From the NCBI RefSeq assembly GCF_013315695.1, contig NZ_CP054353.1: a stretch of DNA of 64,000 bases. One strand, given 5' to 3'. A program made the position numbers and the translations under genes. Under the pieces are notes generated by a model, which saw only the letters and a list, made by a program, of their open reading frames with translations, was not told where the DNA came from and ran no database searches. Shown one piece after another: positions 25,047 through 28,000 of the stretch; the first letter of the stretch is position 1, and every line of letters begins with the position of its first letter. This DNA is from Escherichia coli. Its GTDB lineage: Bacteria; Pseudomonadota; Gammaproteobacteria; Enterobacterales; Enterobacteriaceae.

Positions 25047-28000
25047 TTACACCTTTTCCACATTCACAAGGAAGGACTTAAACTCCGGCGTCTGCGTGTT
25101 CGCATCACCAACGAATGGCGTTAACGTATTGGCAATAAAGCCTTTTTTCGCAACACCTTCATAGCCCCAGTGAATCGGAATACCGATGGTATCGATATCT
25201 TTGCCATTCGCTTTCAGCGTGCGAATACGTTTGGTCACCACCGCTTTGGCTTTGATATAGCCACGGTTGGAGGAGACTTTCACAGTATCGCCCTGGGCAA
25301 TGCCAAGTTTATTCGCCAGCGACTCCCCGATTTCCACAAACTGCTCTGGTTGCAAAATCGCGTTCAACAGCGCGTGTTTGGTCCAGTAGTGGAAGTGCTC
25401 GGTCAGACGATAGGTGGTTCCGACATACGGGAACTTATCGGCTTTACCCAATGCTTCGGCGTCGTCTTTAAAGATTCGCGCAGCCGGGTTCGAGATAACG
25501 TTTGGATGCAGCGGGTTAGTTCCCAGCGGCGTTTCAAACGGCTCGTAGTGTTCCGGGAACGGACCTTCCGCCATCTTATCGAGGGCAAACAGACGTCCCA
25601 TGCCTTCCTGCTGCATGATAAACGGCCCTACGCCGCTGCCCGGAGGCGCTGCGCTGTAATCCGGAATATCCCAGCCGGTCCACTTAGTGCCGTCCCATTT
25701 CAGCAACTGACGCTTCGGATCCCATGGGTTACCCTGCGGATCTGCGGAGGCGCGGTTATACAGAATGCGGCGGTTAAGCGGCCATGCCCATGCCCAGCCC
25801 AGCGTGTTACCGAGGCCAGACGGATCGGCGTTATCACGACGCGCCATCTGGTTGCCTTCCGGCGTCCAGCTACCGGCGAAAATCCAGCAGCCACAGGAGG
25901 TTGTACCGTCATCGCGCAGTTGGGCGAACGAGCTAAGTTGTTGGCCTTTCTTGACGATAACCGCACCGGTTGCCGGGTCGGTAATATCGGCCAGCGCTTT
26001 GCCGTTGCTCTCCATCGCCACTTCTTCTGAAGATGGCTCATGCGGAATGGCGTAGTTCCAGGTCATGTTCAGCACCTGGTCCGGGTTCGCGCCACCCTGT
26101 TCGGCATACATCTTGCGCAAGCGCAGGAAGATACCGGAGAGGATCTCGCCGTCAGTCAGCGCAATCCCCGGGGCGTCCGCACCTTTCCAGTGCCACTGCA
26201 ACCAGCGACCAGAGTTGACGATTGAACCGTTCTCTTCCGCAAAGCAGGTCGATGGCAGACGGAACACTTCGGTCTGGATCTTCGACGAGTCAACTTCGTT
26301 CAGCTCACCGTGGTTCTGCCAGAAGTTAGAGGTTTCAGTGTTCAGCGGGTCGATAGTCACGAGGAATTTCAGCTTCGACAGACAGCCGATCACTTTGTTT
26401 TTGTTCGGGAATGAGGCAACAGGGTTAAAGCCCTGGCAGATATAGCCATTGACTTTGCCCTCTTTCATCATCTCGAAGTATTGCAGGACGTCGTAGCCTT
26501 TATCCCACTTCGGCAACCAGTCAAAGCCCCAGTTATTTTCCGCCGTCGCTTTATCACCAAAGAAGGCCTTCATCATGGAGACGAAGAATTTCGGGTAATT
26601 GCCCCAGTAGTTAACCTGGCCTTCCAGCAGTGGTTTCGGCGTGTTGGCGGTAAGGTAAGTTTGCAGATCGGTCTGCTTCTCGCTTGGCAACGTCATGTAA
26701 CCTGGCAGACTCTGCGACAGCAGCCCCAGGTCGGTCAGCCCCTGAATATTGGAGTGACCGCGCAGGGCGTTAACGCCGCCGCCAGCCATCCCCATATTGC
26801 CGAGCAGCAGCTGGATCATCGCCATCGTACGAATGTTTTGCGCACCAATGGAGTGTTGCGTCCAGCCGAGGGCGTAGAGGAACGACGCTGTTTTATCGTG
26901 AGCACTGGTTTCGGCGATGTATTCGCAGACTTTCAGGAACGCGTCTTTTGGCGTACCGCAGATGTTTTCAACCACATCTGGCGTATAACGGGAAACGTGC
27001 TGTTTCAGCAAGTTCCACACGCAACGTGGATGTTGCAGCGTGGTATCGCGTTTGGCGAAGCCGTTTTCGTCCAGTTCGTAAGTCCAGGAGGATTTATCGT
27101 ACTTGCGTTTTTCCGCGTCGTAGCCGGTGAACAGGCCATCTTCAAAGCCGTAATCCTCACGCACGATCAGGCTGGCGTTGGTATAGGCTTCGGTGTATTC
27201 GCGGTTGAATTTTTCATTGTTCAGCAGGTACAGCAATACGCCTGACAGGAAAGCAATGTCAGTCCCGGAACGAATAGGGGCATAGTAGTCAGCCACCGCC
27301 GCCGTACGTGTAAAGCGAGGATCGATCACAATCAGCTTCGCGCCGTTGTGAATTTTGGCTTCCATCGCCCAGCGGAACCCGACCGGGTGAGCTTCAGCGG
27401 CGTTACCGCCCATCACCACGACGAGGTTGGCATTCTTGATGTCGACCCAGTGGTTGGTCATCGCACCGCGACCAAATGTTGGAGCAAGACTTGCTACCGT
27501 TGGTCCGTGTCAGACACGCGCCTGGTTGTCGACCGCGAGCATACCCAGCGCGCGGGAGAATTTTTGCGTTAAATAGCCGGTTTCGTTACTCGACGCGGAA
27601 GCACACAGCATCCCGGTGGAGAGCCAGCGGTTAACAGTCACGCCTTCGGCGTTTTGCGCAATGTAGTTAGCATCGCGGTCTTCTTTCATCAGTTTGGCAA
27701 TGCGATCAAACGCCTCTTCCCAACTGATTTGCTGCCATTTATCAGAACCTGGCGCACGGTATTCCGGAAACTTCAGACGGCTTTCGGAGTGGATGAAATC
27801 CACCAGGCCAGCGCCTTTCGGACAAAGTGCACCGCGGTTGACCGGGTGATCCGGGTCACCTTCGATATGGAAGATAGATGCTTTGGCGTTTTTTGCTCCG
27901 TCACCGAGGCTGTACATCAACAGCCCACAGCCTACGGAACAATAGGTGCAGGTATTACGGGTTTCGCGGGTGCGCAGCAGTTTATACTGCCGGGTTTCCG

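Follow-up and report, generated by a model that had tools for sequence, protein, structure and literature searches.

The fdoG gene (b3894) of Escherichia coli K-12, its paralog fdnG (b1474) and fdhF are the closest described systems for the locus considered here. Formate dehydrogenase-N (FDH-N) is a nitrate-induced, anaerobic enzyme, formate dehydrogenase-O (FDH-O) is present at a low level and is made aerobically too, and formate dehydrogenase-H (FDH-H) is cytoplasmic. Mass spectrometry (MS) of FdoG found the peptide VU196HGPTVASLAPTFGR, Cys was never seen at position 196, and in selC mutants translation terminates at codon 196 (PMC3636253). The determinants recognized by SelB are a bulged U17, the loop nucleotides G23/U24, and an upper minihelix located 11 nt from the UGA (PMC8659212).

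The locus is on the minus strand of a 64-kb window, which is the whole 64,000-nucleotide stretch of E. coli DNA that was analysed. The region 25047–28097 is almost certainly fdoG, in which the UGA of codon 196 is translated as selenocysteine via a SECIS element and is not a stop. The TGA is the well-known Sec196 codon of fdoG with its recoding hairpin, and nothing about it is scientifically new, as FdoG Sec196 and its SECIS are textbook features that are confirmed by MS and correctly annotated in RefSeq. The practical worth of the case is in annotation hygiene, because two spurious genes are reported here whenever TGA is scanned as a stop codon. The interpretation given in a preliminary description of this DNA is supported, and every element of it that was tested held. 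The features of the locus are collected in Table 1.

The fdoG reading frame and its gene context

Table 1. Coordinates of the features at the fdoG locus (window positions)
Feature	Position	Strand	Basis
fdoG, full coding sequence, formate dehydrogenase-O alpha subunit, 1016 codons incl. Sec196, plus stop	25047..28097	-	translation, TIGR01553, K-12 match
UGA codon 196, read as selenocysteine	27510..27512	-	frame, 1KQF alignment, MS peptide
ORF, 195 aa	27510..28097	-	ORF list
ORF, 804 aa	25047..27461	-	ORF list
Internal Met213 codon, wrongly taken as the start of the 804-aa ORF and of many fragments in databases	27459..27461	-	
Twin-arginine (Tat) motif RRQFFK, residues 5-10	28068..28085	-	direct reading and FdnG identity
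SECIS element, Rfam RF01989 (SECIS_3), incl. UGA and one preceding codon	27457..27515	-	84.3 bits
Whole predicted hairpin, positions 3-48 from U of UGA	27465..27510	-	fold; lower-stem register ambiguous
Apical minihelix G15-C32, putative SelB-binding part	27481..27498	-	fold, covariation, PMC8659212
fdoH, iron-sulfur beta subunit	24132..25034	-	TIGR01582 478 bits; near-identical genome and K-12 annotation
fdoI, cytochrome b556 gamma subunit	23500..24135	-	NF007924
fdhE, formate dehydrogenase maturation protein	22574..23503	-	309-aa ORF; near-identical genome and K-12 annotation
fdhD, divergent sulfurtransferase needed for formate dehydrogenase activity	28291..29124	+	TIGR00129 340 bits; annotation

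Translation of 25047–28097 gives 1016 codons and a terminal stop, exactly the length that the preliminary description had obtained by joining two listed ORFs, and the sole internal stop is codon 196, read directly as TGA at 27512–27510 on the minus strand. The two ORFs share one frame, as had been claimed, since the lengths of 588, 48, and 2415 nt all divide by three. The further claim that they are separated only by the TGA is correct in that one stop codon lies between them, but 16 sense codons also intervene (27462–27509 on the minus strand, HGPTVASLAPTFGRGA). The second listed ORF begins at 27461 because the ORF lister takes the first ATG, which is Met213.

Protein family searches were run with C in place of Sec at position 196. 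The product matches the equivalog model TIGR01553 with 1575.2 bits against a cut-off of 814.2, covering residues 2–1015, and features the Pfam domain order PF04879 (Molybdop_Fe4S4), PF00384 (Molybdopterin), and PF01568 (Molydop_binding). The N-terminus reads MQVSRRQFFK, in agreement with the Tat signal RRQFFK that had been noted there. The Pfam TAT_signal model found no match at E ≤ 0.001 in FdoG; the Tat motif rests on its sequence and on identity with the N-terminus of FdnG, where residues 3–19 (VSRRQFFKICAGGMAGT) match FdnG of 1KQF without difference. The product is the Tat-exported catalytic subunit of the respiratory FDH-O, with molybdenum (bis-MGD) and a [4Fe-4S] cluster. The placement of the TGA at the Sec position was borne out by the structure search, in which codon 196 aligns with X196 (Sec) of FdnG in 1KQF chain A within the motif ARV-X-HGPTVASL, and further matches carry the names of "selenocysteine-containing" formate dehydrogenases. 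The MS peptide VU196HGPTVASLAPTFGR is encoded exactly by the window. By homology with FdnG, Sec196 is probably the active-site molybdenum ligand.

The same arrangement can be read as a true stop that leaves either two genes of 195 and 804 aa or an fdoG nonsense pseudogene. A standard-code ORF scan does list two ORFs and thousands of database entries give the fragments as separate proteins; however, this reading has next to no probability. The TGA and the 59-mer around it are kept in E. coli and in both paralogs, and TGA stands in 116 of 121 protein-motif matches, which would not be the case for a nonsense mutation; the Pfam Molybdopterin domain spans the TGA, the UGA coincides with a match to a curated SECIS model, and the Sec peptide has been observed by MS (PMC3636253). 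Additionally, the Met at which the 804-aa ORF begins is internal, with 16 in-frame sense codons between it and the TGA, and the cut falls inside the Molybdopterin domain, with profile positions 1–67 in the N-terminal fragment and 97–300 in the C-terminal one. We are highly confident that neither the 195-aa nor the 804-aa ORF is a genuine gene: both arise when UGA is taken to end translation and the frame is reopened at Met213.

Automated callers had been said to split this gene, and the exact fragments are indeed found as stand-alone proteins, the 195-aa one on at least 1000 contigs and the 804-aa one on 516. Public protein collections contain thousands of such fragments, some of them misnamed. 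RefSeq/PGAP annotates the gene whole, as one 3051-nt CDS, and the RefSeq pipeline names it "fdnG". The tell-tale pattern is a pair of ORFs in one frame with a lone TGA, a curated SECIS match, and a domain across the stop; spotting it averts false "split gene" and "pseudogene" calls.

The identification as fdoG, also proposed earlier, agrees with 97.9% DNA identity to K-12 b3894, only two amino-acid differences, and the fdhD/fdoGHI-fdhE context. The 64 nucleotide differences from K-12 fdoG include the changes I417 (V in K-12) and N522 (S in K-12), neither of which is near the Sec site, and there are zero differences within nt 560–660, the SECIS included. The allele is at least 99% identical to only 5 of 5433 E. 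coli records. The gamma subunit gene fdoI scores 453 bits on the FDH-O-type model NF007924 (cut-off 341) and fails the FDH-N gamma model (244 against a cut-off of 339). The locus encodes FDH-O rather than FDH-N, as determined by orthology with b3894, the fdhD and fdoGHI-fdhE neighbours, and the gamma-subunit model. A promoter and terminator scan of 22300–28400 found nothing beyond shuffle expectation.

By blastn the window is 99.93–99.98% identical to strain MS 21-1 in three blocks, and an IS4 and a stretch of ~80 bp are present in MS 21-1 only. That the window equals the MS 21-1 sequence throughout was considered and is false. A second recoding candidate, frvR, carries an "internal stop" flag in MS 21-1, yet in the window its 582 codons run without interruption, and it was also rejected.

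The SECIS hairpin 3' of the UGA

A whole-window scan with Rfam matched SECIS_3 at the UGA with 84.3 bits (gathering score 63), covering model positions 1–59 of 59 (E = 1.4e-18), so that the ORF arrangement is not due to chance. The UGA occupies model positions 4–6 and is inside the coding sequence, with the frame unbroken through it. No second SECIS match was found in the 64-kb window by the Rfam scan. The preliminary description had expected a SECIS within about 40 nt 3' of the UGA, and a hairpin was found within ~45 nt both by folding and by Rfam. The folding check that it had proposed was done on a 51-nt segment, which forms a hairpin of −14.6 kcal/mol. This energy is ordinary (z = −0.76; 41 of 200 shuffles are as stable), and weight is therefore put on the covariance model, the determinant positions, and the covariation.

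With hairpin positions numbered from the U of the UGA, the minimum free energy (MFE) and centroid structures both feature paired G15-C32 and G16-C31, a bulged U17 (27496), and a loop with G23 (27490), U24 (27489), and C25 (27488). The apical minihelix begins 11 nt past the UGA, and the spacing, bulge, and loop all agree with the SelB determinants of PMC8659212. The lower stem can be drawn in two registers. The Rfam consensus register has −7.2 kcal/mol with A-C and A-G mismatches, and a register shifted by one base, which is that of the MFE structure, has −14.6 kcal/mol. Across species the two registers are paired in 86% and 87% of cells, with one-sided changes only and no compensatory pair, so that either register may form. 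The element is a bacterial SECIS of the fdnG/fdoG type by score, location, determinants, and upper-helix covariation.

The mRNA just 3' of the UGA is predicted from its sequence to fold as a SECIS hairpin. By the established bacterial pathway, SelB-GTP with Sec-tRNA(Sec), the selC product, would bind the minihelix and would deliver the tRNA to the A site as the ribosome meets the UGA, competing with release factor 2, and a cell that lacks the sel machinery would stop translation at codon 196 and make a 195-aa fragment. There is no sel gene and no tRNA within the 64-kb window. Of 5426 complete E. coli genomes, 5424 carry the tRNA-Sec gene (selC), and we infer the decoding machinery of this genome from its species. 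SelB binding and Sec insertion at this element are putative, by analogy with K-12, where the sequence of this region is identical and where Sec196 was found by MS and is selC-dependent (PMC3636253).

A different proposal is that near-cognate tRNAs mostly read the UGA as Trp or Cys with no part played by the Sec machinery, and that the hairpin merely slows the ribosome. Orthologs of the Cys type (5 of 121) show that an enzyme with Cys can in principle work; however, Cys has never been found at position 196 by MS and selC mutants terminate there (PMC3636253). The bulged U17 and the loop G23/U24 never vary among the 61 TGA sequences and are lost in all five Cys sequences, which fits a SelB site and not a generic roadblock. 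Near-cognate reading is accordingly given hardly any weight, and decoding of the UGA as selenocysteine is the reading adopted.

Conservation of the UGA and the hairpin

The preliminary description had named a broken frame, or the lack of a SECIS-like structure together with a Cys codon in the orthologs, as what would speak against a Sec codon. The SECIS and the continuous frame are present, and 116 of 121 protein-motif matches across Proteobacteria carry TGA, with a Cys codon in the other 5. In the 61 distinct TGA sequences every cell of the upper helix (100%) is paired, and the compensatory pairs 21-33 and 24-30 (2 of 7 upper-helix pairs, 35 cells) change on both sides. None of 500 shuffles reaches the covariation score of the upper helix, a statistic inflated by the kinship of the sequences, and pairing drops to 25–57% when the partners are slid; the set was fetched by a pattern that fixes codon positions 1 and 2, which leaves few pairs free to vary. 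In the five Cys versions the third base of Thr200 is no longer fixed as G. All 61 distinct sequences of the Sec type have Ser or Gly at codon 203, where all 5 of the Cys type have Ala. This may mean that the RNA dictates the protein residue at codon 203.

Within E. coli, 5432 of 5433 records match the 59-nt element at 99% identity or more, and a single one differs, by a synonymous C-to-T change through which a C-G pair becomes U-G. Effectively every one of 5425 E. coli genomes has the TGA and the 59-mer, and so do both paralogs. The longest identical run between the window's fdoG and fdnG is 71 nt, starting from GTC-TGA, in genes that share 77% amino-acid identity and 74.9% DNA identity. In this block 20 of 20 codons are the same, versus 61% same codons elsewhere at shared amino acids.

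The identity of the 71-nt block may have come from recent gene conversion between fdoG and fdnG and not from selection on the RNA, an explanation that bears on no other part of the evidence. Not one base differs within the block, which reaches slightly past the hairpin, and paralogs in the same genome can swap short tracts. However, the same 59-mer is found at 26 loci of other enterobacteria, including Yersinia, Photorhabdus, Citrobacter, Enterobacter, and Providencia, despite flanks of 150 nt that average only 80% and 86% identity to the window (58% at upstream third codon positions), and the variation within the element is compensatory. Gene conversion is thus an unlikely source of the identity, and selection on the RNA is preferred.

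The invariance of the 59–71 nt, across the two paralogs in about 5400 E. coli genomes and at the 26 loci of other enterobacteria, covers unpaired and lower-stem positions as well as the codon before the UGA. The UGA and SECIS block may be under more constraint than SelB binding requires, a doubtful proposal. If true, the extra constraint could point to a further role of the sequence, such as ribosome or release factor 2 context effects that set the recoding efficiency, or to recurrent gene conversion between the paralogs.

Comparison with known formate dehydrogenases

A distant relative is FDH-H (1AA6), which matches with E = 4.9e-48 over the N-terminal part only. The SECIS of fdhF, which is the experimental model, is a hairpin directly 3' of the UGA within the coding sequence, as in the window. 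On Rfam SECIS_2, which we take to be the family of fdhF-type SECIS elements, the window scores 28.1 bits against a gathering score of 70. The fdhF element shares with the window the 11-nt spacing, the bulged U17, and the loop G23/U24 (PMC8659212).

The Cys-type FdnG-like enzymes, such as those of Klebsiella sp. BIGb0407 (L038) and Pectobacterium betavasculorum (L073), are like the window in the motif x-C-HGPTVA-x-L-APTFGRGAM, save for the Sec. They feature TGC or TGT in place of TGA, Leu in place of the preceding Val, and Ala at codon 203, with no G23/U24 loop. Their upper helix is paired in 74% of cells, versus 100% in the TGA set.

The paralog fdnG of E. coli (b1474; structure 1KQF) shares Sec196, the 71-nt UGA and SECIS block, the Tat motif, and the domain order with the window's gene. 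It differs in having 1015 codons versus 1016 and in its locus, where fdnGHI adjoins yddG and yddM. The K-12 fdoG gene (b3894) features the same 1016 codons, the UGA at codon 196, and the same neighbours, fdhD, fdoH, fdoI, and fdhE, as the gene in the window.

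Reading frame and identity of fdoG

The joined frame is continuous over 1016 codons plus a terminal stop, and one-frame translation finds a single internal stop, the TGA at codon 196. The preliminary description held that two ORFs in the same frame are split by this TGA alone. The shared frame and the single stop are confirmed with a small correction, since 16 in-frame sense codons (27462-27509, HGPTVASLAPTFGRGA) intervene and the ORFs are not adjacent; the ORF lister uses ATG 27459-27461, the codon of Met213 of the joined protein, as a start. The proposed length of 1016 codons and the RRQFFK Tat motif agree with the translation, as the N-terminus of the joined protein reads MQVSRRQFFK and thus includes a twin-arginine motif.

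With Sec196 entered as Cys, the joined protein scores 1575 bits (cut-off 814) against TIGR01553, the NCBIfam equivalog for the formate dehydrogenase-N-type alpha subunit. Pfam assigns Molybdop_Fe4S4 and the start of a Molybdopterin domain (profile positions 1-67) to the 195-aa N-fragment, and the rest of the same domain (97-300) and Molydop_binding to the 804-aa C-fragment, so one domain is cut by the TGA. Among solved structures, E. coli FdnG (1KQF, 1904 bits) is the best match, and the matches that follow it carry the name "selenocysteine-containing" formate dehydrogenases. The suggested alignment to FdnG around the Sec position places codon 196 on residue 196 of 1KQF (X, selenocysteine) in the motif ARV-X-HGPTVASL.

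The gene shares 97.9% DNA identity with K-12 fdoG (b3894), with two amino-acid differences (I417V and N522S), whereas K-12 fdnG shares 74.9% DNA and 77% protein identity. The neighbours are fdhD (divergent), fdoH, fdoI, and fdhE, and the adjacent gamma subunit passed the FDH-O-type model and failed the FDH-N model. The identity to b3894, the gene context, and the gamma subunit type show that the window gene is fdoG, as described earlier, despite its pipeline name "fdnG". The RefSeq pipeline uses the label "fdnG / formate dehydrogenase-N subunit alpha" in every E. coli genome listed, and the name fdoG is found only in the curated K-12 record. The allele is uncommon, with at least 99% identity in 5 of 5433 records and a next best of 98.9%.

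The earlier statement that automated callers split this gene holds for the public protein collection, in which the exact 195-aa fragment is found on at least 1000 contigs (cluster of 3382 members) and the exact 804-aa fragment on 516 contigs (cluster of 6687 members). The RefSeq pipeline handles fdoG correctly, and of 5426 complete E. coli genomes, 5425 have a single 3051-nt CDS annotated at this locus. In Cronobacter malonaticus and Hafnia alvei, 195-aa FdoG/FdnG N-fragments ending at the Sec codon are misnamed "sulfate ABC transporter substrate-binding protein".

Other features of the window

A low-GC island between fabY and fdhE (35-43% versus about 54% in the flanks) carries one 617-aa ORF, which has no significant Pfam match (weak PF22740, E 0.0099, below cut-off) and no NCBIfam family. 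RefSeq splits this ORF into "transposase" and "hypothetical protein, incomplete" in near-identical genomes, and the "transposase" label looks unsupported. Of 5426 E. coli genomes, 1061 have the full island; it is absent from K-12. The closest genome to the whole window, strain MS 21-1, is 99.93-99.98% identical. Relative to the window, MS 21-1 carries an additional IS4 element (about 1.4 kb) at about 6978-6989, where 12 bases match both flanking blocks in the alignment and look like a target-site duplication. About 80 additional bases of MS 21-1 near 45540 (~45540-45547) are also missing from the window. The frvR frame is intact in the window (582 codons), whereas frvR of MS 21-1 is annotated as a pseudogene containing an internal stop.

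Features of the window and of the fdoG hairpin (hairpin positions are counted from the U of UGA)
Feature	Position	Strand	Basis
Joined fdoG frame	25047-28097	-	one-frame translation
ORF, 195 aa	27510..28097	-	ORF scan
ORF, 804 aa	25047..27461	-	ORF scan
TGA, codon 196	27512-27510	-	read from sequence
SECIS_3 (RF01989)	27457-27515	-	Rfam
Upper helix: G15-C32, G16-C31, then five further pairs		-	ViennaRNA
Bulged U17	27496	-	ViennaRNA
Loop G23-U24-C25	27490-27488	-	ViennaRNA
naRNA4 (CssrE), copy 1	366-443	+	Rfam, above gathering score
naRNA4 (CssrE), copy 2	46946-47023	-	Rfam, above gathering score
ES222 sRNA	4939-5046	+	Rfam, above gathering score
ES036 (CssrF) sRNA	52027-52068	-	Rfam, above gathering score
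Low-GC island	18650-22300		
ORF, 617 aa	19018-20871	+	
frvR	30382-32130	-	

The SECIS hairpin and its conservation

The expected SECIS hairpin 3' of the UGA is present. The curated Rfam model SECIS_3 aligns from end to end and scores 84.3 bits (gathering score 63; E-value 8.9e-21 local and 1.4e-18 across the whole window), and the Rfam scan of the 64-kb window gave no further SECIS match. The 51 nt starting at the UGA fold into a hairpin with the bulged U17 and the G23-U24-C25 loop. Its folding energy of -14.6 kcal/mol (z = -0.76) is unremarkable, and the lower-stem register is uncertain, the Rfam consensus register giving -7.2 kcal/mol on the window sequence versus -14.6 for a register shifted by one base.

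Of 5433 E. coli records, 5432 carry the 59-nt UGA and SECIS element (59-mer) with at least 99% identity, with about two sites per genome (fdoG and fdnG). The lone variant carries a synonymous substitution, CAC to CAT, by which a C-G pair becomes U-G. The longest identical run between fdoG and fdnG is 71 nt from GTC-TGA onward; codons 195-214 are identical at 20 of 20, versus 61% of the codons for shared amino acids in the rest of the gene. Seven fdoG/fdnG matches lie on plasmid-labelled records of the E. coli genome collection; a single genome of the 5426 lacks any match, and in strain 97.3 (NZ_CP061758.1) one paralog is missing.

Other species were scanned with one genome per species and a pattern drawn only from the protein motif, which left the third codon positions free, together with two complete codons, and accepted TGA, TGC, or TGT at the Sec position. 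A Cys codon in orthologs had been named as evidence against Sec; TGA is found in 116 of the 121 motif matches and a Cys codon in five. Among 61 distinct TGA sequences the upper helix is paired in 100% of cells and features compensatory changes on both sides of pair 21-33 (GC 43, AU 14, GU 4) and pair 24-30 (AU 40, CG 17, GC 4). None of 500 shuffles reached the observed covariation score, and sliding the helix partners lowered pairing to 25-57%. The lower stem shows one-sided changes only and is 86-87% paired. In the TGA set, codon 203 is invariably AGU (Ser) or GGU (Gly), the source of G23/U24, and Thr200 is encoded by ACG throughout. The five Cys sequences (L038, L073, L103, L120, and L124; TGT or TGC at the Sec position), used as a control, differ in that Leu replaces Val before Cys, Ala (GCN) replaces Ser/Gly at codon 203, and the Thr200 codon is unconstrained at its third base. 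Their hosts include Pectobacterium betavasculorum and Klebsiella sp. BIGb0407, which holds a TGA-type copy too (L039).

Gene conversion could contribute to the perfect identity of fdoG and fdnG; however, it cannot account for the compensatory changes, or for a core shared with other genera whose flanks have diverged. The identical 59-mer is found at 26 loci of other enterobacterial species, where the flanking 150 nt share only 80% and 86% identity with the window and the third positions upstream only 58%, a comparison that is illustrative rather than a formal test because the loci were chosen for an identical core.

Decoding of codon 196 and comparison with known systems

Zorn et al. purified E. 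coli Fdh-O and Fdh-N and identified the peptide VU196HGPTVASLAPTFGR, which the window encodes exactly; Cys was never seen at position 196, and the authors state that without Sec-tRNA(Sec) the translation of fdnG and fdoG ends at this codon (PMC3636253). The conservation, the domain spanning the TGA, the SECIS, and the mass spectrometry data rule out both a true stop and a pseudogene. The view that the UGA is read through mainly by a Sec-independent route conflicts with the peptide data and the selC dependence (PMC3636253), and with SelB determinants that are invariant in TGA forms and lost in Cys forms. The reading of the TGA as a selenocysteine codon in fdoG is correct, as was the observation behind it. 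Of 5426 complete E. coli genomes, 5424 carry the tRNA-Sec gene (selC); the 64-kb window contains no tRNA, so we infer the decoding machinery of its genome.

Judging from the pathway established in bacteria and from the near-identity with K-12, the apical minihelix would be bound by SelB-GTP-Sec-tRNA(Sec), which would decode the UGA in competition with RF2. Sec196 would be a ligand of molybdenum in the bis-MGD cofactor, and folded FdoG, its maturation helped by FdhD and FdhE, would be exported via the Tat system and would pass formate electrons to quinone with FdoH and FdoI.

The Sec codon and SECIS of fdoG are already known in full, and the sole use of the finding is as an annotation safeguard. 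In the fdhF SECIS, a 17-nt upper stem-loop starts 11 nt from the UGA; U17, G23, and U24 are conserved, and SelB is contacted by U17 and G23 (reviewed in PMC8659212). The window hairpin has the same 11-nt spacing, U17, G23, and U24 as fdhF.
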